IMG/VR virus record: IMGVR_UViG_2703718871_000021
Span: 1-39,908 of that record
DNA: 39,908 nucleotides
From: a virus
Taxonomy: Duplodnaviria > Heunggongvirae > Uroviricota > Caudoviricetes
Direction: 5' to 3' (one strand)
Part shown: one piece after another, positions 3,523-36,004 of the stretch
Layout: each line of letters begins with the position of its first letter
Position numbering within the stretch: the stretch's first letter is position 1
Program-made: the position numbers and the translations under genes
Notes under the pieces: generated by a model
Seen by the model: the letters and a program-made list of their open reading frames with translations, nothing else
Databases searched by the model: none
Told to the model about the DNA's origin: nothing

Positions 3523-4320
3523 ATGCCCCTGGCGAAAATATTTACAAAGCAAGTTTCTTTATTAACTATGTTTTCAGCGTTAGCTTATGCGATGGCATAT
3601 TATTTTCAGAAAGGTGTTGCATCGTATTATGGCTATCCAGACCTTTTTATTAAAATAGACTTAAATACGCTATTGTATTCGGCTGTGTGGCTTTTGTTTT
3701 TTAGTTTTTTATTTCTCGGCGCCTTATATGCGGCGTTGATGTTTGATTTGAAAGGAAAATATTATGTTCCATTTATTGTATTTATAGTTGTTATGCTAAT
3801 GGCTAATATTTGTATAATAGGATTTCATTGGCCTTTTGGTTATTTCTCCGAAACTTCTGTGATGAGTGTTCAGGATATTTTATTATTTGCTATGCTTTTG
3901 TTGAATTATCACAATGTGGTGTCCATGCCAATCCATAGTAAGAGACACGAACATCATATGGAGAGCATTAGAAAATTTGGGAGGCTTGCAGAGTATAAGA
4001 ACGTATTTTATTATATCGATTTAAAAATCCTAAAGTCAGCTTTTCCTTTAGGGGTGATAACGTTGTTGATATTGAGCTATACATTCGGGAAGGTTACTGC
4101 ATTTAAAAATAACGAATATTATATGGTAGATGGTAGTAATACTAAAGTGTTGCTCAATTCATTTGGTAGTGGTTTTGTTGTTGGTGATTGTGAGTCAAAT
4201 AGCGCAAAATTTGAATTTGTTAATGATTTAAAAGGGATGAGATTCACAATCATGTCCTCTAAAAAGGAAATAGCTAAATTAAAAGAGTGTTTCGAAATAC
4301 GTGTTAAAAATACGGATTAA
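3523..4320 (+). CDS. hypothetical multi-pass membrane protein (AT-rich cargo gene)
   Basis: 265-aa ORF on the strand opposite to the surrounding early operon; visibly AT-rich; several long hydrophobic segments (LLYSAVWLLFFSFLFLGALYAAL, FIVFIVVMLMANICIIGF); GAGG-type RBS before ATG. Confidence 0.55.
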   Translation: MPLAKIFTKQVSLLTMFSALAYAMAYYFQKGVASYYGYPDLFIKIDLNTLLYSAVWLLFFSFLFLGALYAALMFDLKGKYYVPFIVFIVVMLMANICIIGFHWPFGYFSETSVMSVQDILLFAMLLLNYHNVVSMPIHSKRHEHHMESIRKFGRLAEYKNVFYYIDLKILKSAFPLGVITLLILSYTFGKVTAFKNNEYYMVDGSNTKVLLNSFGSGFVVGDCESNSAKFEFVNDLKGMRFTIMSSKKEIAKLKECFEIRVKNTD

Positions 4321-4332
4321 AGCATAAGTCTT

Positions 4333-16790: not shown

Positions 16791-16890
16791 TATTCAGGGC
16801 CCACCGAAGGACGGCTCATAACCCAATCCTACGGGCGTATACGCAGGGCCCGCCTTTCAACAACACCCCGTAATGGCGGAGGTGGGAAGT

Positions 16891-17232
16891 ATGAAAATGC
16901 ACAATGCTCCTCATTCCTGGCCTGACTTACTGGAACTCTTACAAAGTTGGTGGCGTGGAGATACGCCGTTGGGCGCAGTGGTTATGTCAATTGTTATGGC
17001 TGGCTTGCGCATTGCCTATTTTGGCGGTGGCGGCGGCTGGAAACGAAAAACGCTTGAGATTTTGCTCTGTGGTGCTCTGACGCTGACCTTTGCATCCGCT
17101 CTTGAGTATGTTGGATGGCCTAAATCGCTTTCTGTTGCCATTGGTGGTGGTGTTGGGCTGATCGGTGTCGATGCTATTCGTGGGGCTGCAATGCGAGTAA
17201 TCGGTAACAAGTTTGGTGGCTCTAAGGAGTAA
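16891..17232 (+). CDS. holin with dual-start motif
   Basis: Strong RBS GGAGGTG 7 nt before ATG 16891; Met-Lys-Met start as in lambda S holin/antiholin; two to three hydrophobic helices (AVVMSIVMAGLRIAYFGGGG, ILLCGALTLTFASAL, VAIGGGVGLIGV); immediately precedes endolysin. Confidence 0.75.
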   Translation: MKMHNAPHSWPDLLELLQSWWRGDTPLGAVVMSIVMAGLRIAYFGGGGGWKRKTLEILLCGALTLTFASALEYVGWPKSLSVAIGGGVGLIGVDAIRGAAMRVIGNKFGGSKE

Positions 17233-17235
17233 TTC

Positions 17236-17712
17236 ATGCAGACACTAAATTCCCAGCGTAAAGCTTTCCTGGATATGGTGGCATGGTCAGAAGGAACGGA
17301 TAACGGGCGACAACCGACACGTAACCACGGTTATGATGTTATTGTCGGTGGTGAACTGTTCACTGATTACTCCGATCACCCTCGCAGACTTGTCACGCTA
17401 AACCCGAAGCTTAAATCAACAGCCGCAGGCCGGTATCAGCTTCTTTCACGCTGGTGGGATGCCTACCGCAAGCAGCTTGGCCTGAAAGATTTTTCGCCAG
17501 AAAGTCAGGACGCTGTGGCGCTGCAGCAGATTAAAGAGCGTGGCGCTTTACCGATGATTGACCGTGGCGATATTCGTCAGGCAATCGACCGTTGCAGCAA
17601 TATCTGGGCGTCGTTACCTGGTGCAGGTTACGGTCAGTATGAACATAAAATCGGTGACCTGATTTCCAGGTTTAAAGATGCTGGTGGGGTGGTAAATGAA
17701 GCTGACTTATAA
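17236..17712 (+). CDS. R: endolysin, lambda R-like lytic transglycosylase
   Basis: 158-aa ORF very similar over most of its length to lambda R as I recall it (NSQRKAFLDMVAWSEGTDNGRQPTRNHGYDVIVGGELFTDYSDHPR...). Confidence 0.9.
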   Translation: MQTLNSQRKAFLDMVAWSEGTDNGRQPTRNHGYDVIVGGELFTDYSDHPRRLVTLNPKLKSTAAGRYQLLSRWWDAYRKQLGLKDFSPESQDAVALQQIKERGALPMIDRGDIRQAIDRCSNIWASLPGAGYGQYEHKIGDLISRFKDAGGVVNEADL

Positions 17713-18220
17713 GATTGTCATCGCGGCATTTTTCTTCTCTGCCTTTGGGGCGCTCGTCTGGTCTGCAAACCATTACCACAGCAAGTATCAGGCAGAAAAG
17801 TTGCGGGCTGATAAAGCGGAAGGTGAAGCTGAATATCAAGGGAAAGTGATAGCTAATCAGGCATTAAACTTCAATCGTTTTAACCAGATAGCAGAAAACG
17901 CAAGCCGATTAAATTCTCTGGTCGACATCGGTCACGAGAAGACAGTCATCAAATACCGTGAGGTTCTGCTCCGTGAAAAGAACTGTGATTTTCCTGTTCC
18001 TGTTGATATTGCTGTCGGGTTGCTCAACTACGCGAACCGTTTACGCGCCAGCGCATTGCACGCCGATTCCGGGGACATTGACTCAGCCGGTGATCGTGCC
18101 ACTACCACCAGAACGTTGACATATTGCCAGGCTGTTCTGTGGATTAACCCACTGTTGGCAGCCATCGAGAAGGCGAATAACCAGTTGGCTGGTGTCCGAC
18201 AAATAGAACAGTCCCGGTAA
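17696..18220 (+). CDS. Rz: Rz-like inner-membrane spanin
   Basis: 174-aa ORF overlapping endolysin stop; N-terminal TM segment (IVIAAFFFSAFGALVWSA) then charged coiled-coil-like region; lysis cassette position. Confidence 0.75.
   Translation: MKLTYKIVIAAFFFSAFGALVWSANHYHSKYQAEKLRADKAEGEAEYQGKVIANQALNFNRFNQIAENASRLNSLVDIGHEKTVIKYREVLLREKNCDFPVPVDIAVGLLNYANRLRASALHADSGDIDSAGDRATTTRTLTYCQAVLWINPLLAAIEKANNQLAGVRQIEQSR
17973..18119 (+). CDS. Rz1: Rz1-like outer-membrane lipoprotein spanin, embedded in Rz in another frame
   Basis: 48-codon ORF from GTG 17973: VKRTVIFLFLLILLSGCSTTRTVYAPAHCTPIPGTLTQPVIVPLPPER; lipobox L-S-G-C, proline-rich mature part; wholly inside Rz. Confidence 0.6.
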   Translation: MKRTVIFLFLLILLSGCSTTRTVYAPAHCTPIPGTLTQPVIVPLPPER

Positions 18221-18856: not shown

Positions 18857-20479
18857 ATGCCGTTACCATTCCCCTTCGATTTTAAACATCCTGATTACCA
18901 GATGGTTTTTGAATGGCGGATGGAACGCCTACAGCGCATTCGCCAGAATCCTGAAATATTGCCTGCACTAAAACAGTTTTACCGAACTAATCCGGCTCAG
19001 TTCATCATCGACTGGGGCATGACAACGGACCCGCGTAATATTGATTATGGCCTGCCGGTGACCATTCCGTTTTTACTCTTCCCTAAGCAGGAGGAGTGGA
19101 TCCACTGGATTATGGAACGCTGGGGCAATCGGGAGAATGGTATTACCGAAAAATCCCGTGAAATGGGGCTCAGTTGGACCGCGATCGGACTGGCATGTTC
19201 GCTTTGTCTCTTCAACAAAGAAATGGTTATCGGTTTCGGCTCCCGTAAAGAGGAATACGTCGACAGCACCGGTGACCCGAAAGCATTGTTCTGGAAGGCG
19301 CGCAAGTTCGTGGAAACACTGCCTGTAGAGTTTCGCGGTTCGTGGAGCGAGAAGAAGCACGCGCCATATATGCGTGTTGAGTTTCCTGAAACTGGTGCCG
19401 TTATCAAAGGCGAGGCTGGCGATAATATTGGTCGTGGTGACCGTACCACGCTTTATCTGGTTGATGAGGCTGCATTCCTTCAGCGTCCTCTGCTGATTGA
19501 TGCGGCGTTGTCACAAACGACGCGTTGCCGTATCGACCTGAGTTCAGTTAACGGCATGGCGAACCCGTTCGCTCAGAAGCGTCATGGCGGGAAGATACCG
19601 GTATTCACATTCCACTGGCGGGATGATCCTCGCAAGGATGAAGAGTGGTATCGCAGGGAATGCGAGAAAATCGATAATCCGGTGGTGGTGGCACAGGAAC
19701 TTGATCTGAACTACAGCGCATCAGCGGAAGGCGTCCTGATTCCATCCGAATGGGTACAGGCTGCCGTTGATGCGCATATCAAACTGGGTATCCAGCCAAC
19801 AGGCAAACGACTTGGCGCGATGGATGTCGCCGACGAAGGCAGGGACAAAAATGCCTTTTCCACCCGTCATGGCTTCCTCCTGGAAAATGTGCGGGAATGG
19901 TCCGGTGTGGGCAGCGACATTTATCAGTCCGTCGAGAAGGTTTTCGGCTTTTGCGAACAGGATAACCTCGAAGAGTTTCGCTTTGACGAGGACGGGCTGG
20001 GCGCTGGCGTTCGCGGCGATGCACGCGCTATCAACGAACTGCGTAACGCTGCGCGTCGACCGTCAATACTCGCCACACCGTTTCGAGGTAGTGGCGCGGT
20101 ATTTGATCCGGATGATGAAGCTGTTCGCGGGGACAACGGGCAAGCCGCACGTCTGAACAAGGACTTCTTCGCTAACGCCAAAGCCCAAAGCTGGTGGCGG
20201 TTACGTAAACTTTTTCAGAATACCTGGCGCGCCGTGGTTGAAGGTATGGCTTACAACCCGGACGAAATCATCTCAATCAGCAGTAGCATGGCACTCAAAG
20301 ATAAACTCATCATCGAGCTTTCGCAGCCGACCTATTCCATTAATGGTGTGGGAAAAATCGTTATTGATAAACAGCCTGATGGGACCCGGTCGCCAAATCT
20401 TGCCGACTCGGTGATGATCAACTATGCCCCAATGAATTCAGCCCTGAACATCTGGGAGTTGCTAGGGAGACAGGCCTGA
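18857..20479 (+). CDS. terminase large subunit
   Basis: 540-aa ORF between TerS and portal; Walker B-like [11 protein letters not shown]; nuclease-like acidic motif [11 protein letters not shown]; canonical Walker A not obvious by eye. Confidence 0.7.
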
Positions 20480-29424: not shown

Positions 29425-29621
29425 CGTTTAACAGCCTGCCGGACGGGCTGTCCTACCTTCTCAATCCGGTTGACGCCGGGTTAATTCCTTATACAGCACT
29501 TAAAGATGGCTCTGTCGATTTGTACGACATTGCTCTCTTGAATGACCATCTGGCGGTAAAAGCGGATAACCAGCGGCGCATTGAGAAATGGAGAGAGGAT
29601 AATGAACGCCGAGACTATTAA
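28972..29621 (+). CDS. tail assembly chaperone, extended form via predicted -1 programmed frameshift at T_TTT_TTG (29373-29379)
   Basis: The -1 frame after the slippery site stays open for ~80 codons (…GLTFNSLPDGLSYLLNPVDAGLIPYTALKDGSVDLYDIALLNDHLAVKADNQRRIEKWREDNERRDY) and ends at 29621, overlapping the tape measure start. Confidence 0.45.
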
Positions 29622-31590
29622 AGATTTCCTCGTCTCGCTTGGCTTCAGTGTGGATGATGCAGGAGCGAAAAAATTCGGTTCTGTCCTCGCCGGTACAACT
29701 GCAAATGTCATCAAAATGGGGCTGGCCGTCGAAGGAGCTGCGCTGTCCGTGGTGGCCTTCACGGCTAAGATCGCCTCCGGTCTGGATAATCTTTACTGGG
29801 CGTCACAGCGCACCGGCGCGACAGTCCAGGGAATTCAGTCTATTGGCTATGCGGTTTCGCAGGTTGGCGGCAGCGTGGACGCTGCGCGATCTTCTCTGGA
29901 AAACCTCTCCCGGTTTATTCGTAATAATCCCGGGGCGGAGGGATTTCTGAATCGCCTGGGCGTACAGACCCGTGATGCCAGCGGTAACATGCGTGACATG
30001 GCCGCTATCTTTACGGGCGTTGGACAGAAACTCAGCAGCATGCCGTATTACCGGGCTAACCAGTATGCGCAGATGCTGGGCATTGACGAAAATACCCTTA
30101 TGGCGATGCGCCGGGGTGTGGGTGGCTTCTCCGGGCAGTACAGCGCAATGGCGAAAGCTATCGGCTTCAATGCTGACGAGGCGGCCAGAAGCTCCAACAA
30201 ATTTATGACCTCCCTGCGTGAGTTTAGCGCGATGGCAGGCATGGCCCGTGACAAAATCGGCTCTAATCTTGCGGGTGGGCTTGCAGGTTCGCTGGACACC
30301 CTGCGCCGCCATATCCTGGACAACTTCCCTCGTATCGAGCAGACCCTGACGAAAGCCATAAAAGGCATTCTGGCGCTCGGGGATATTATCGGGCGGCTGT
30401 TCTTCAGACTGATTGAGGGGACATCAGGCCTTATCACCTGGTGGCAATCGCTGGATAAGCAAACGCGGGAGTTGATCTCGCTGTTTGGCGCACTGACGAT
30501 TGCGCTGCGCATTCTGAACAGTACGTTCTGGATGTCGCCGGTTGGCCTCATTACCGCGCTGGCGGCGGGGATTGCCCTCCTGTGGGAGGACTATCAGACC
30601 TGGAAGGAAGGCGGCGACAGCCTGATTGACTGGGGCAAGTGGAAACCGGAGGTCGATGCCGCGCTGAAGATGGTTCGTGACCTTAAAACGACCGTTAACG
30701 ACCTGGCGAAAGCGCTGGCGAAACTACTCAATATTGACCCCAAATCATGGTCCCTGAAGTGGGATTTCAGCAACTTCATCGACCAGATGGGCGAATTCAG
30801 CAAAATGCTGAACATGATCGCCGACCTGCTCAACGCTATCAAAGATGGCCGCTGGGCTGATGCCGTCAGCATCGGCAAACAGATACTTAATCAGGGCAGC
30901 GAAAATCCGTCAGCGATGCCGATGGTTACAGACAGCGCTAATAGTACTGCCGACTGGATTAAAGAGCACTGGGGATTCGATCCCCGCAGTGTGGGCCGGA
31001 CGGTACGCGGCTGGTTTGGTGATGATGAGCCGGAACAACATGCACAGGCTACGAAACGAGGAGAACGGAATAACAATCCGGGAAACCTTAATTTTGCTGG
31101 TCAGGCGGGGGCTTCTCTTGAACGCCCGGGCGGGCGATTTGCCAGATTCGAAACTGCCTTTGATGGATTACGGGCTCTTGCTCGTCAGTTAATGTTGTAC
31201 GCCGGACGGGGAATAAACAGCGTGGAGAAAATTGTCTCTACCTGGGCGCCTGCGTCTGATAATAACAACACAACTGCGTATATCAGGGCTGTATCGCAAC
31301 GACTGGGAGTGGATCCCCGGGCTGCCCTGAATATGAGCGATCCGCAAACCATGTCAGCATTGATGAGCAGCATTATCCAGCATGAGAATGGAAGAAATAT
31401 CTATTCTCGAGAGCTGATTAATAAGGCTGCCGTGGCGGGAATTAGTGGCAAAGTGACAGAGGTTAACCAGCAAAATACCTACCACATTTACGGTGGCGGA
31501 GATCCGCACGCTGTCGGTAATGAGGTTGCACGTCGGCAACAGTCTGCAAATGCTCAGGTCATGCGAAGTAATCAGGTGAGGGTGGGTTAG
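29602..31590 (+). CDS. tail tape measure protein
   Basis: ~662 aa from ATG 29602 (RBS GGAGAGAGGA); long Ala/Gly/Leu-rich helical protein in the position after chaperone genes; hydrophobic central segment. Confidence 0.75.
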   Translation: MNAETIKDFLVSLGFSVDDAGAKKFGSVLAGTTANVIKMGLAVEGAALSVVAFTAKIASGLDNLYWASQRTGATVQGIQSIGYAVSQVGGSVDAARSSLENLSRFIRNNPGAEGFLNRLGVQTRDASGNMRDMAAIFTGVGQKLSSMPYYRANQYAQMLGIDENTLMAMRRGVGGFSGQYSAMAKAIGFNADEAARSSNKFMTSLREFSAMAGMARDKIGSNLAGGLAGSLDTLRRHILDNFPRIEQTLTKAIKGILALGDIIGRLFFRLIEGTSGLITWWQSLDKQTRELISLFGALTIALRILNSTFWMSPVGLITALAAGIALLWEDYQTWKEGGDSLIDWGKWKPEVDAALKMVRDLKTTVNDLAKALAKLLNIDPKSWSLKWDFSNFIDQMGEFSKMLNMIADLLNAIKDGRWADAVSIGKQILNQGSENPSAMPMVTDSANSTADWIKEHWGFDPRSVGRTVRGWFGDDEPEQHAQATKRGERNNNPGNLNFAGQAGASLERPGGRFARFETAFDGLRALARQLMLYAGRGINSVEKIVSTWAPASDNNNTTAYIRAVSQRLGVDPRAALNMSDPQTMSALMSSIIQHENGRNIYSRELINKAAVAGISGKVTEVNQQNTYHIYGGGDPHAVGNEVARRQQSANAQVMRSNQVRVG

Positions 31591-32481: not shown

Positions 32482-33546
32482 ATGTCACAGAACTGGATGA
32501 GACATTTCGAGCTGCAGCTTGTGGACGGGAACGGTCAGGGAATTGAGCTAAGTGATTTCAAAGTCACCTTTACGATCGACTGGTTCAACATCAGCAGCGC
32601 GTCCCGGGTAGGGACTATCAAAATTTATAACCTCTCGGCAGATACTGTGAACCGAATTACCGGGCAGGAGTTTTCGAAAGTGCGTCTGATTGCGGGTTAC
32701 GACGGTATCGCGCCGGAGGTGTCGGCAAGCGACGTCGGGACAGTGCGGGAAGTTGACGCGGCGGACGTGGGCCAGAGTGATGGTCGCAACTACGGACTGA
32801 TTTTCAGCGGTGAAATTCGCTACTCGGTCACAGGAAAAGACAGTCCGGTTGATTCCTACGTCCTGATTCAGGCAGCCGATACAGATCTGGCTTTTGCCAC
32901 CAGTATAACCTCACAGACGCTGGCTGCCGGTTACACGGTCGCTGATGTAAACCGTGCGCTGATGAAAGACTTTGAAGCCAAAGGCGCGACCGAAGGCCTG
33001 ACGCCTGAAATGCCTGCGACTGTATTCCCCCGGGGGCGGGTGCTCTTTGGCATGACGCGGCATCTTATGGATAACGTAGCCGGGCAATGTGGCGCAACAT
33101 GGCAATTCGTGGATGGTCAACGCCAGATGGTGGCGAATAATGAATATGTTCACGAAGCGATTGTGCTCAACAGCGCTACCGGGCTTATTGGCATGCCGCA
33201 GCAGACCATCGGCAACGGCGTAAACGTCCGCGCGCTTATTAATCCGAACATCCGGGTTAACGGGCTCATTCAGCTGGATCAGGCTTCGGTGTATCGTACC
33301 GCGTTGTCGAACAACGATATCGCGATGGCCGGTGGGCAGATCACCGACCAGAACACAGACGGAAATATCACGCTCAGCGGCACCACATCGCAGCCTGCCA
33401 GCATCGCAACGGATGGCGTTTATATTGTGCGCGGGATTATGTACACTGGTGACACAAGGGGCCAGGCGTGGTACATGGACATGATGTGCGAAGCGCGCGG
33501 CGCGGCGGATCTTGTTTCCTCATCAGCGAGGGGAAGAGGACTTTAA
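32482..33546 (+). CDS. putative baseplate hub/tail protein
   Basis: 354-aa ORF in the position of Mu/P2-type hub proteins between tape measure and spike; assignment by synteny. Confidence 0.5.
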   Translation: MSQNWMRHFELQLVDGNGQGIELSDFKVTFTIDWFNISSASRVGTIKIYNLSADTVNRITGQEFSKVRLIAGYDGIAPEVSASDVGTVREVDAADVGQSDGRNYGLIFSGEIRYSVTGKDSPVDSYVLIQAADTDLAFATSITSQTLAAGYTVADVNRALMKDFEAKGATEGLTPEMPATVFPRGRVLFGMTRHLMDNVAGQCGATWQFVDGQRQMVANNEYVHEAIVLNSATGLIGMPQQTIGNGVNVRALINPNIRVNGLIQLDQASVYRTALSNNDIAMAGGQITDQNTDGNITLSGTTSQPASIATDGVYIVRGIMYTGDTRGQAWYMDMMCEARGAADLVSSSARGRGL

Positions 33547-33878
33547 TGAAACGGTTCTGTTTGGCGTTAGCAATGATGGTTACTGCTCCGGCGATGGCTG
33601 CAATTCAGTGCGGCAATTACACAATGACCGGTGACGGAATGACTGTTATTAACGGTGAAACCGTCACATCTCAGAAAATCAAATTTCTGGGAAAAGATGG
33701 TGACGACTCAAACATGAAAATGGACATGGGCCTGATGCCTTCTCGCGATGGTAACAATTACGGCTTTGAGTTTGTGAAGCGTAACGGAAAAGCTTTCCTG
33801 AACGTCCAGCTGCTGCAGAACAGCATGGACGCGCCGAGAATTATCGGATCTTTCCCGTGTAAGAAAGTCGCTGGGTGA
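33546..33878 (+). CDS. small secreted protein with signal peptide (unknown function)
   Basis: 110 aa from ATG 33546 overlapping previous stop (TAATG); MKRFCLALAMMVTAPAMA then AIQ looks like a Sec signal peptide with AxA cleavage site; two Cys in mature part. Confidence 0.5.
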   Translation: MKRFCLALAMMVTAPAMAAIQCGNYTMTGDGMTVINGETVTSQKIKFLGKDGDDSNMKMDMGLMPSRDGNNYGFEFVKRNGKAFLNVQLLQNSMDAPRIIGSFPCKKVAG

Positions 33879-34027
33879 ATAGAATCTGAACGCTGTCTCA
33901 TCTGAAAAACAACAAAACGTGCTCTAAAAACTGTCGTTTTTTGAGGCTAGCGATTACACTGCTCTAACTTTTTGATGGTGAATTGCCATCGATATGCACC
34001 CCCATAAAAGCCAGGAATAACTAAAAC

Positions 34028-34759
34028 ATGAGCTTAGCGCAGCCAAAATCAGGAGAACTGTTAGATCTTCTGACCCCTTCATTAACTAAGGGTGAAAATC
34101 TTCTGAGTGAATTTGAAGTACATCAAATCATTCGTGAAGCTAAGAAAATCCCGGAACGTTATCAGGGGTTATCGATTGAAGGCTTAGCTAAGCTTGTTCT
34201 TGGTGAAATCGAAGAGGGGTGCTCTCTCTGTGAACAAGGGTTGAGACTCGCTCCTAACGATTCAGTTTCTTTCTGTAACTATACGATAGCGCTGCGTAAC
34301 TTAGGTTTGCACGCTCGCCAGTACGCAATGATTCAGAATTCGGCCAACTCACTTAACCCAACAATACTGGCTGAAGTTGCAACAATTTCTGCATACTGGG
34401 CTGATATCGATTTGCTTGAAAAGGTGATGCCGATGCTGACAGCTATGGAAGTGCCGCGTCCTGAAGAAATGGCAAAGTGGTGTCACACACTTGATTATCT
34501 GCATACCCATCAAGAGCATGCTCAGGATCTCAAAACCATTGGGCAGTTAATGATGAATGTCGCAGACAAGTATCGTGTGCGTCTCGCGGGTGCTCATGCT
34601 TTTTACGTTTTGTCAGAACTTGATACGCTATTTGTGGAAGTCAAAACAGACGATCCAGCGCTCCTCTCGCAGATGAATAACGACCTAGCTGACGAGATTA
34701 TCAATGCTGGTCTTGCCGATTCTGAATGCGTCGGATGCTTTGAAGCGGGGGATTTTTAA
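34028..34759 (+). CDS. hypothetical protein, gene 1 of low-GC two-gene cassette
   Basis: 243-aa ORF after 149-bp intergenic gap; visibly lower GC than flanking tail genes; helical-looking with Cys pairs (CSLCEQG, CVGCFEAG); no recognised motif. Confidence 0.6.
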   Translation: MSLAQPKSGELLDLLTPSLTKGENLLSEFEVHQIIREAKKIPERYQGLSIEGLAKLVLGEIEEGCSLCEQGLRLAPNDSVSFCNYTIALRNLGLHARQYAMIQNSANSLNPTILAEVATISAYWADIDLLEKVMPMLTAMEVPRPEEMAKWCHTLDYLHTHQEHAQDLKTIGQLMMNVADKYRVRLAGAHAFYVLSELDTLFVEVKTDDPALLSQMNNDLADEIINAGLADSECVGCFEAGDF

Positions 34760-35187
34760 TGGCGGTTGAACATACCTGTTTCCTTGAGCTTGCAAAACAT
34801 TCCCTTACTTTAAACGGTGAAATGTGGACAAGAAACGCAATTAGCCGAGCATATTACGGCATGTATCATTCGGCGTTACGAATTACCAATAATTTGGTCC
34901 CAAGTTTTACTGAAGACGGTGAAAAATTAAAAGGTGGTGTTCACATGCGAGTCTATACCGTGTTTTGTAGCGGTGAAGCAGCTGCAGTGAACAATGTCGA
35001 TGTTAACGCAGTAAAAAAAATCGGCGTAAAGCTGAAAATGACGCATGCACAACGAATTAACTCAGATTACAAACTTGAGCGAAAGGTTAATCGAATTACA
35101 GCGATAAGCGCGATTCAGGATGCAGAAGAAGTCGATACAATCGTTAATCAACTTTTGAAGGTTGGCGACGATTCGTTAACCGCATAA
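34759..35187 (+). CDS. hypothetical protein with HEPN-like R-x6-H motif, gene 2 of cassette
   Basis: 142-aa ORF whose ATG overlaps gene-1 stop (TAATG); RAYYGMYH at residues 30-37 fits the R-x(4-6)-H pattern of HEPN RNase motifs (may be coincidental); low GC; terminator follows. Confidence 0.6.
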   Translation: MAVEHTCFLELAKHSLTLNGEMWTRNAISRAYYGMYHSALRITNNLVPSFTEDGEKLKGGVHMRVYTVFCSGEAAAVNNVDVNAVKKIGVKLKMTHAQRINSDYKLERKVNRITAISAIQDAEEVDTIVNQLLKVGDDSLTA

Positions 35188-35207
35188 GCTGCAATTCCTC
35201 ATAAATC

Positions 35208-35232
35208 AAACCCGCCACCCGGCGGGTTTTTT
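35208..35232 (+). terminator. rho-independent terminator closing the two-gene cassette
   Basis: CCCGCC-accc-GGCGGG followed by TTTTTT. Confidence 0.6.
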
Positions 35233-35251
35233 GCTTTCTGGAGCCTACCAA

Positions 35252-36004
35252 ATGGCAGTATCTGACCAGACTCGCAGCGGCGACCTTGCCGAAACATTCA
35301 AATCTGAGCGGGAAACCATTAAAAACCAGATCCGTGTCGCGTTACCTGGCATTATTCAGTCATTCGACCCTGACGCGGTTACGGCGGTTGTGCAGCCTGC
35401 TGTCCGTTCGGTTGAAACTGATAACGACGGGAACCGCATTACCAAAAATTACCCGCTGCTGGTGGATGTGCCGGTGGTATTTCCGCGCGGCGGAGGCTGC
35501 ACGCTAACGTTCCCGGTTAAAACTGGTGATGAATGTCTGGTAATTTTCGCCGATCGCTGCATCGATTTCTGGTGGCAGAGTGGCGGGATACAGGCGCCGG
35601 TCGATGATCGAATGCATGATTTATCGGATGCGTTTTGTATTGTCGGTCCCCAGTCGCAGGCAAGGAAGATTAGCGGTATTAATACCAGTGCCACACAGTT
35701 GCGTAGTGACGACGGCAGCACCTATTTTGAGCTTAATCCTGATACCAGGAAAATTAAAATTGTCGCTCCGGGGGGGCTTGATGTGGTTGCCCCCTTGGCT
35801 GATTTTTCTGAGAAAGTAACCATTCATGGCCTGTTAACCTGGATGGGTGGCATGGTGGGGTCTGTTGTTTCTGGTGTGGCTTCAAAAATCACTGGTGCTG
35901 TTGAGTTCTTGGGGAGCGTGAAGGCTAACGGCAAGCCAATCGATGATACGCACACTCATGGCGGTATTCAGCGCGGTGGAAGCAATACCTATGGGGTAAA
36001 CTGA
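35252..36004 (+). CDS. baseplate spike / baseplate assembly protein V-like
   Basis: ~250 aa from ATG 35252 (RBS GGAG); C-terminal THTHGGIQRGGSNTYG resembles spike-tip motifs of gpV/gp45-type proteins. Confidence 0.65.
   Translation: MAVSDQTRSGDLAETFKSERETIKNQIRVALPGIIQSFDPDAVTAVVQPAVRSVETDNDGNRITKNYPLLVDVPVVFPRGGGCTLTFPVKTGDECLVIFADRCIDFWWQSGGIQAPVDDRMHDLSDAFCIVGPQSQARKISGINTSATQLRSDDGSTYFELNPDTRKIKIVAPGGLDVVAPLADFSEKVTIHGLLTWMGGMVGSVVSGVASKITGAVEFLGSVKANGKPIDDTHTHGGIQRGGSNTYGVN

Follow-up and report, generated by a model that had tools for sequence, protein, structure and literature searches.

T4 Spackle, P1 Sim and Vibrio phage K139 Glo are phage-encoded periplasmic exclusion proteins, and Cor (phages phi80, N15 and T1) and Llp (T5) are receptor-blocking lipoproteins, accessory proteins that are targeted to the envelope and encoded beside tail or receptor-binding genes. 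HK97 gp15, TP-J34 Ltp and P22 SieA are prophage moron or membrane proteins that block DNA entry (PMC10883804). Here, we analyze a small open reading frame (ORF) at positions 33546-33878 on the plus strand of IMG/VR virus record IMGVR_UViG_2703718871_000021; the whole 39,908-nt stretch is referred to as the window. The window is a contractile-tailed prophage, and the small ORF, which encodes 110 residues, follows the gene for the baseplate hub. We propose that its product is a Sec-exported periplasmic prophage accessory protein that is probably stapled by a disulfide, and that a superinfection-exclusion or gatekeeper factor is its most plausible role, a reading to which we assign a probability of about 0.4.

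The small protein resembles each of the described groups in part. It shares with Spackle, Sim and Glo a small size, a signal peptide, a phage origin and a predicted periplasmic, non-virion character, and all of them would act at the place where tail tip and DNA pass through the envelope. However, it has no sequence or fold similarity to these proteins, which are expressed early or from the prophage, whereas the window gene is coupled to a late tail gene. Cor and Llp are likewise accessory proteins encoded beside tail genes, and some remote relatives of the window protein (P0137 and P0158) are lipoproteins. In contrast, the window protein has no lipobox, because A-I-Q precedes Cys22, and is by prediction a soluble periplasmic protein; it has no homology to Cor or Llp, and a periplasmic protein cannot mask a receptor on the outer surface. 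The genes for gp15, Ltp and SieA are accessory genes in or beside the structural operons of temperate phages, and their products are dispensable for the virion and act on the DNA conduit. For SieA, several sequence types are known that have diverged strongly from one another. These three are membrane proteins or lipoproteins expressed in the lysogen, whereas the window protein is soluble by prediction, unrelated to them in sequence, and encoded by a gene for which the scan showed neither a promoter nor a terminator of its own. A soluble periplasmic accessory protein that is co-translated with the baseplate hub and carries a swappable variable face is a variant of the known envelope-acting accessory proteins of phages.

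The first-pass annotation of this DNA had described a 110-residue ORF with a Sec-type signal peptide and two cysteines in the mature part, and these features are present in the sequence and conserved in relatives. By inspection, the N-terminus consists of the n-region MKR (charge +2), the h-region FCLALAMMVTAP and a c-region in which A-M-A is followed by A; the mature protein is predicted to begin with AIQC, directly after MKRFCLALAMMVTAPAMA. A charged n-region, a hydrophobic h-region of 10-15 residues and small residues at -3 and -1 are the features expected of a substrate of Sec and signal peptidase I (SPase I), and 115 of 120 homologs retain them. The N-terminal net charge is at least +1 in 112 of these 115 proteins, the median peak hydrophobicity is 2.8, and the residues at -3 and -1 are small (AMA, SFA and ALA). 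Across the 115 homologs, individual residues of the signal sequence vary freely, yet the charge, the hydrophobicity of the core and the small size of residues -3 and -1 persist, the pattern that evolution leaves on a genuine signal peptide. The N-terminus therefore appears to behave as a cleavable signal peptide across the family.

The mature part contains exactly two cysteines, C22 and C105. Both are invariant among 32 close relatives (alignment A1), and among remote homologs of 24-40% identity (alignment A2) C22 is invariant and C105 is found in at least 90%. Because the two cysteines sit in the first and last predicted strands, we think it reasonable to infer a C22-C105 disulfide that would staple the fold in the oxidizing periplasm. 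The remote relatives P0137 and P0158 carry lipoboxes (LSGC and LVSC, respectively) and an extra domain of about 190 residues, which gave no Pfam match, and this lipoprotein-fusion form occupies the same post-hub position in two viral contigs (L044 and L045).

The ORF list placed the start of this frame at an upstream GTG (33468..33878, 136 residues). We prefer the ATG at 33546-48 because it overlaps the hub stop codon, is preceded by a Shine-Dalgarno-like motif and corresponds to the start of all homologs in alignment A1. The ATG shares one base with the hub stop codon TAA at 33544-33546 (TAATG). This overlap, together with the family match of the hub, bears out the earlier proposal that the small ORF is translationally coupled to a hub-like gene. 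The small ORF is a real gene, far above chance, as indicated by its match to PHROG 3443 (function unknown; E = 2.2e-52, residues 3-109 against positions 6-114 of the 115-position profile), by 406 clusters of homologs at 90% identity, and by ratios of nonsynonymous to synonymous substitution (dN/dS) of 0.02-0.12 within allele types, which correspond to purifying selection. Two deposited homologs are annotated with later starts: SEN34_20 (L002, approximately 3930-4270) and the "putative exported protein" of ST340-VIM1phi10.1 (L004, approximately 3975-4321) both begin at an internal Met and lack the signal peptide as deposited, and in each case the full ORF begins just past the hub stop codon. 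The full-length SEN34 homolog has a non-ATG start.

The family is narrow: the 406 clusters are essentially all from Enterobacterales, and a recognizable copy is found in approximately 285 of 5,426 complete E. coli genomes, always on the chromosome. The RefSeq name for PHROG 3443 proteins is "STY1065/STY2022 family phage-derived protein", which is given to an E. coli homolog that occupies the equivalent site and is 56% identical to the window protein, and members of that family share the length, signal peptide, two cysteines and post-hub site of the window protein. Across alignments A1 and A2 and about 50 loci, the family has a common signature that the window protein shows: a signal peptide, C-G-x-[FY] after the cleavage site, ING...Q-K, a C-terminal [FY]-[PD]-C and the post-hub position. 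The window protein has no match in Pfam (E <= 0.1), NCBIfam or PADLOC. Our local NCBIfam hidden Markov models (HMMs) also miss the RefSeq-named homolog and the Salmonella representative P0072, and the RefSeq name probably derives from a rule outside the HMM library. A profile search of 1.84 billion representative proteins returned only 64 clusters at 50% identity. These are mostly similar small signal-peptide proteins or fragments, with two lipoprotein fusions and four weak partial matches to very long proteins, and the search yielded no functional link. The remote homolog P0148 was not found in IMG/VR. A literature search with STY1065 and STY2022 as genes, WP_001214055, PHROG 3443 and related phage names returned no functional or proteomic data, and the SEN34 paper contains no virion proteomics. 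Together, the homology and structure searches that the first-pass annotation had put forward as a check identified the family and returned neither a homolog annotated as structural nor a significant fold match. The small protein belongs to a family that is catalogued yet uncharacterized, and the kind of system is not categorically new.

An AlphaFold2 model of the mature part (predicted local distance difference test score, pLDDT, 88.6; predicted template modeling score, pTM, 0.79) has a small all-beta fold of eight strands. A profile search of the PDB with the small protein gave nothing even at E <= 10, and Foldseek searches of the PDB and BFVD gave no significant match (best E = 0.2). The best geometric match was streptavidin, with a template modeling (TM) score of 0.56 and an E value that is not significant. 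The likeness to avidin/streptavidin and to barrels of the fatty acid-binding protein (FABP) type lies in the modeled eight-strand all-beta architecture, a class that often serves tight binding; the difference is that the structural match is not significant. The fold class would be typical of compact binding proteins, and the model offers no hint of catalysis. We also considered a lysozyme inhibitor, of the Spackle or PliC type, directed against the muralytic domain of the tape measure. This candidate was rejected, as it has no fold or family support and relatives with an SLT-annotated tape measure lack the gene. MliC/PliC, Ivy and PliG were absent from the Pfam matches (E <= 0.1) and from the top 50 Foldseek matches in the PDB with either model.

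We then compared the surroundings of the gene in five phage genomes, 33 species-representative genome loci and eight IMG/VR contigs, which give about 50 loci from more than 30 Enterobacterales species. The small ORF lies directly 3' of the hub gene in nearly all of these loci, about -1 to +30 nt away from it, and this position holds from hubs of 97% identity down to hubs of 48%. The exceptions are two loci with 1.9 kb (L040) and 0.6 kb (L033) between hub and small ORF, and two in which no hub was found upstream (L024 and L039). L026 begins at the end of its contig, and hub adjacency was not judged there. The interval between the small ORF and the spike gene is variable DNA that ranges from 25 nt to 4.1 kb, and it measures just 25-75 nt in L036, L039, L040 and L041. 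Throughout a whole lineage of tail modules of enterobacterial myoviruses, the small ORF and the hub gene are inherited together as a fixed pair.

The protein itself is variable in a localized manner. Allele types of the small ORF are AIQCGNYTMTGDG, AFQCGGYKMTLSD, DLQCGGYRLHAAD and GFTVKCGGYTMVAN. Between types, dN reaches 0.4-0.8 in the first hairpin compared with about 0.15-0.2 for the rest, and the profile of column entropy likewise marks the N-terminal part of the mature protein as hypervariable. In 66 pairs of loci with hubs more than 90% identical, this part is 36-100% identical. Comparison of the window with E. coli 09A19CPO009 (L006) delimits a replaced tract with approximate ends (Table 1), which takes in roughly the final 12 codons of the hub gene together with the signal-peptide region and the greater part of the mature domain; sequence of 90-100% identity flanks it. 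In tandem paralogs of Serratia aquatilis, the C-terminal halves are near-identical and the N-terminal hairpins differ. The N-terminal half is a fast-evolving face that recombination exchanges among tail modules differing little elsewhere. Members of each allele type come from several host genera, with no host-specific pattern. The C-terminal half of the spike is modular too, with 40-99% identity among loci with hubs more than 90% identical, and the small-ORF allele varies independently of it.

Several relatives have lost or exchanged the gene, and one has multiplied it. Providencia phage PSTCR3 lacks the small gene, and its hub gene overlaps the spike gene. Burkholderia phage Magia also lacks it and has at the site an unrelated reverse-strand gene with a signal peptide, and "Elizabethkingia" phage EKP1 (L008) has two other signal-peptide ORFs there. 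In Hafnia phage yong1 (L007), whose hub is 78% identical to that of the window, all that is left of the family gene is its final 23 codons (4023-4091). This remnant follows gp67, which has a signal peptide ending in VNKRTVFLILSLFVPIAVMA before APGK if read from a start upstream of the annotated one, and the yong1 site (3560-4091) is an in-place gene replacement. Conversely, Serratia aquatilis CP173186 (L033, 6001-10304) has multiplied the gene into five to six paralogs in tandem, including a truncated one, and a 402-residue transposase-like ORF interrupts the array. As expected of a moron in the Hendrix/Juhala sense, the small ORF is an extra gene between two genes that are adjacent in PSTCR3. 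The promoter and terminator that a moron would carry, and that would permit expression from a repressed prophage, were not seen in a consensus scan, which is weak evidence and not decisive: there was no sigma-70-like promoter at 33150-33546 and no terminator after the small ORF. A structural baseplate gene would be present in all phages that share the tail module, occur in single copy and encode a cytoplasmic protein, a profile that this gene does not fit. Because the gene is absent or replaced in relatives, occurs in tandem copies and encodes a conserved signal peptide, its product is very unlikely to be a structural part of the baseplate and is better described as accessory or "cargo". The first-pass annotation had noted that periplasmic proteins are unusual as structural components and that this one may be cargo; the losses in PSTCR3 and Magia, the yong1 remnant, the Serratia array and the conserved export features all speak for accessory status.

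Some copies occur in degraded or unexpectedly labeled DNA. In a contig from an Enterobacteriaceae metagenome-assembled genome (L017, 2448-8995), a prophage remnant has an intact small ORF behind a hub gene cut to 105 residues, and the type 1 BREX genes brxL and pglZ lie on the opposite strand about 1.6 kb away. A defective prophage of Pseudescherichia vulneris (L032, 1-2537) retains hub and small ORF, followed by a tail-fiber-like ORF, a 189-residue ORF and apparent host genes; the spike-to-wedge genes are deleted. EKP1 has an unannotated 80-residue, Thr-rich signal-peptide ORF after the hub. It carries a Flavobacteriia label and has enterobacterial-type tail genes at 47-81% identity. A contig of Chryseobacterium sp. 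18061 (L013) has the same class label, tail genes 78-93% identical to those of the window and a small ORF of 86% identity. The host labels of EKP1 and L013 likely reflect misassignment or contamination.

How might such a protein act? After Sec export and DsbA-type oxidation, the small beta-protein would sit in the periplasm, lipid-anchored in some relatives, and its variable N-terminal face could bind a partner that crosses or resides in this compartment. The likeliest target would be a tail-tip or DNA-conduit component of incoming phages, and binding would result in superinfection exclusion or gatekeeping. Having different alleles, or several copies in tandem, would then broaden or redirect the range of targets. 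This proposal is based on the predicted periplasmic location, the linkage to genes whose products cross the periplasm, the hypervariability and allele swapping, the tandem arrays, and a cargo neighborhood of defense-like and envelope genes. Several observations weigh against it. Searches of Pfam, NCBIfam, PADLOC, PDB sequences and Foldseek gave no homology link to known exclusion proteins (Spackle, Sim, Imm, SieA, gp15 and Ltp), and the only PHROG match was 3443. Translational coupling ties the gene to a late tail gene, and no sigma-70-like promoter or terminator of its own was seen, which argues for late expression rather than the expression in the lysogen that classical prophage exclusion needs. 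We also asked whether the small-ORF allele co-varies with Dit, plug, hub, the N- and C-terminal halves of the spike, or gp25. Allele type did not co-vary with the C-terminal domain of the spike, and the sole signal came from the adjacent hub end, which reflects simple linkage; there is thus no co-evolution signal with an identifiable tail-tip target. Finally, signal-peptide cleavage and the disulfide are themselves predictions.

A bolder form of the exclusion proposal seems doubtful to us. Here, the family would constitute an unrecognized class of periplasmic gatekeepers hard-wired to the hub gene of a single myovirus tail lineage, in which the hypervariable hairpin of a disulfide-stapled mini beta-protein recognizes tail-tip or DNA-conduit proteins of given phages or tailocins, and in which allele swaps and arrays provide a modular repertoire of specificities. 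As a variant, the protein, co-translated with the hub and then exported, might meet the phage's own particles only after lysis and act on them outside the cell.

Two alternatives remain serious rivals to a gatekeeper, given the late-gene coupling with no promoter or terminator of its own, the lack of co-variation with the spike and the lack of homology to exclusion proteins. The first, which we consider unlikely, is a late-acting periplasmic helper of the phage's own lytic cycle, made with the hub and exported before lysis. Such a helper could possibly modulate the envelope, neutralize a periplasmic host defense or enzyme, tune lysis or protect progeny. It would account for the tight spacing, conserved in about 40 loci, by which the small ORF overlaps the late hub gene or lies 0-30 nt from it, for the failure to find a separate promoter or terminator, and for the four loci in which the small ORF is a plain gene between hub and spike. 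However, candidate lysis-sized ORFs lie elsewhere in the window (16873-18220, 5' of a 540-residue ORF at 18857-20479), related phages propagate without the gene, and hypervariability, allele swaps and tandem arrays fit a recognition arms race better.

The second alternative is a lysogenic-conversion factor that benefits the host through envelope physiology, such as resistance to stress, serum, antimicrobial peptides or bacteriocins. Bor, Lom and SodC are prophage cargo encoded in tail regions, and the small protein is similarly exported, small, prophage-borne and dispensable for the tail. The intact copies beside the truncated hub near BREX genes and in the prophage that lacks its spike-to-wedge genes are in keeping with a benefit to the host, as is the accumulation of cargo at the adjoining site. 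Yet in the loci examined the family occurs only inside the tail module and never as a stand-alone chromosomal gene, its allele types extend over several host genera, and no independent promoter was detected. We regard a conversion factor, too, as improbable.

The two remaining explanations fare far worse. It is highly improbable that the protein is a genuine structural component of the baseplate or tail tip with an uncleaved hydrophobic N-terminus. Its site within the baseplate gene string, the hub coupling and co-inheritance with the tail module are what such a component would show, but it would not be expected to conserve an n/h/c signal peptide with an AXA site and a cysteine pair, to have lipoprotein-anchored relatives, to be missing or replaced in PSTCR3, Magia, EKP1 and yong1 with copy numbers from 0 to 6, or to exchange alleles independently of hub and spike, and no homolog carries a structural-protein annotation. 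We give almost no credence to the suggestion that the small ORF belongs to the adjacent two-gene cassette, acquired with it as one mobile unit: the two lie only 149 nt apart, in the order the first-pass annotation gave, but more than 40 loci carry the small ORF without the cassette, and E. coli 09A19CPO009 has kept the cassette (87-89% identity to the window) while its small-ORF allele is swapped (56%). The hub and spike proteins of that strain are 98% and 96% identical to those of the window. Among the fetched loci the 243- plus 142-residue cassette is confined to L006, L011 and L012, while L042 encodes a protein distantly related (30%) to the 243-residue one, and the small ORF stays next to the hub in nearly all loci; on this basis the small ORF is not part of the insertion, contrary to what had been suggested at first pass. 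Hub linkage is kept while downstream cargo changes or vanishes, and alleles are replaced independently of the cassette. The insertion that varies is the cassette; the small ORF is a conserved anchor with its own allelic replacement.

Table 1. Features of the small ORF and its neighbors, in window coordinates.
Feature	Position	Strand	Remarks
Tape measure	29581-31590		sub-threshold Pfam minor-tail match
Dit-like protein	from 31590
Pam3-gp18-type plug	from 32177
Baseplate hub, 354 aa	32482..33546	+	PHROG 196 "baseplate hub", E = 1e-88; Pfam E217_GP41 "Baseplate hub gp41" sub-threshold, E = 6e-5
Allelic-replacement tract relative to E. coli 09A19CPO009 (L006)	33509..33816	+	blockwise DNA alignment
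Shine-Dalgarno-like AAGAGGA	33534..33540	+	5 nt 5' of ATG, within end of hub gene; sequence reading
Signal peptide, residues 1-18, MKRFCLALAMMVTAPAMA	33546..33599	+	predicted SPase I cleavage after A18
Mature domain, 92 aa	33600..33875	+	predicted eight-strand all-beta
Cys22 codon	33609..33611	+	first mature cysteine, first predicted strand
Hypervariable N-terminal part of mature protein	33609..33730	+	first beta-hairpin with indels, and loop at about residues 50-60
Cys105 codon	33858..33860	+	last predicted strand
Stop codon of small ORF	33876-33878	+
Spacer between small ORF and cassette	33879..34027	+	149 nt
Two-gene cargo cassette, 243 aa (PHROG 22649) and 142 aa (PHROG 5176)	34028..35187	+
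Terminator-like hairpin	35208..35229	+	9 bp, 6 GC, then T-run; end of cassette, just before spike
Baseplate spike	35231..36004	+	Pfam spike N-terminal domain, E = 8e-44; GpV Apex motif just under curated cut-off
117-aa ORF	from 36004		homologs are "sheath initiator" in RefSeq

The nearest relatives of the window are the induced E. coli phages vB_EcoM-611R5 and kin, at 97% over the structural genes, and Salmonella Brunovirus SEN34, at 82%. The first tail genes encode, in order, a DUF3383 protein, a KPP10_Orf10-type structural protein and a tail assembly chaperone, and the genes after the 117-residue ORF encode Baseplate J, DUF2612, a fiber and a 199-residue ORF. Spike homologs in RefSeq are named "membrane-puncturing spike protein". 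The C-terminal region of the tape measure (31100-31500) contains "ERNNNPGNLNF..." and gave only the weak Pfam match to a minor tail protein; tape-measure homologs in yong1, EKP1 and ST340-VIM1phi10.1 are annotated with an SLT or lytic transglycosylase domain. The hub of vB_EcoM-611R5 (L005, 2437-3501) is annotated as two coding sequences of 639 and 420 nt and is 99% identical to the 354-residue hub of the window, and a frameshift or sequencing error is likely.

Downstream of the small ORF, the spacer has an RNA fold z-score of -1.44, which is not significant, no Rfam match and no convincing promoter or terminator. The cassette proteins have no match in PADLOC and none in Pfam or NCBIfam above the curated cut-offs. 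The 243-residue protein has a weak TPR match, and the N-terminus of the 142-residue protein, RNAISRAYYGMYHSA, is HEPN-like by eye. Sub-threshold Rfam matches to leaders and small RNAs at the hairpin before the spike are consistent with a terminator, and a cassette that ends in a strong terminator right before the spike gene has a moron-like architecture.

The junction between small ORF and spike (equivalent to 33879-35230 of the window, in L001-L051) is an accessory-gene hotspot throughout the tail-module family, bordered downstream by the spike gene, and is occupied by toxin-antitoxin, defense-like and exported-protein genes. They encode a Fic/Doc toxin preceded by a Phd-antitoxin-like gene, a YafO toxin, a membrane-anchored Mrr-type (Mrr_cat) nuclease, a DUF2335 protein, a secreted OB-fold (tRNA_anti-like) protein, a recurrent secreted family of about 120 residues (L014, L015 and L031) and a protein with an RNNLFHG motif (611R5 and L013), which we read as HEPN-like. 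Many of these occupants bear signal peptides or transmembrane anchors. In nearly every isolate of Salmonella Paratyphi B PG1, SEN34-like prophages of this family carry sopE, which encodes a type 3 effector (PMC11632088), and this phage group is therefore an established vehicle for cargo.

If the small protein proves to be only a late helper or a host-fitness factor, it would be an ordinary accessory gene, and the lesson for annotation would stand: the gene is neither structural nor part of the cassette. If instead it blocks phage entry, the few exclusion proteins known from Gram-negative phages would gain a class that is soluble rather than membrane-bound, and its conserved body and variable hairpin would represent a natural scaffold for specificity swapping. 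This prophage tail module is widespread among enterobacteria, with examples in E. coli, Klebsiella, Salmonella (among them the SEN34-like prophages with sopE), Yersinia and Photorhabdus, and its hub-spike junction would then be a site at which to seek envelope-acting and defense cargo; the family could also aid the prediction of phage-therapy failure on lysogens.

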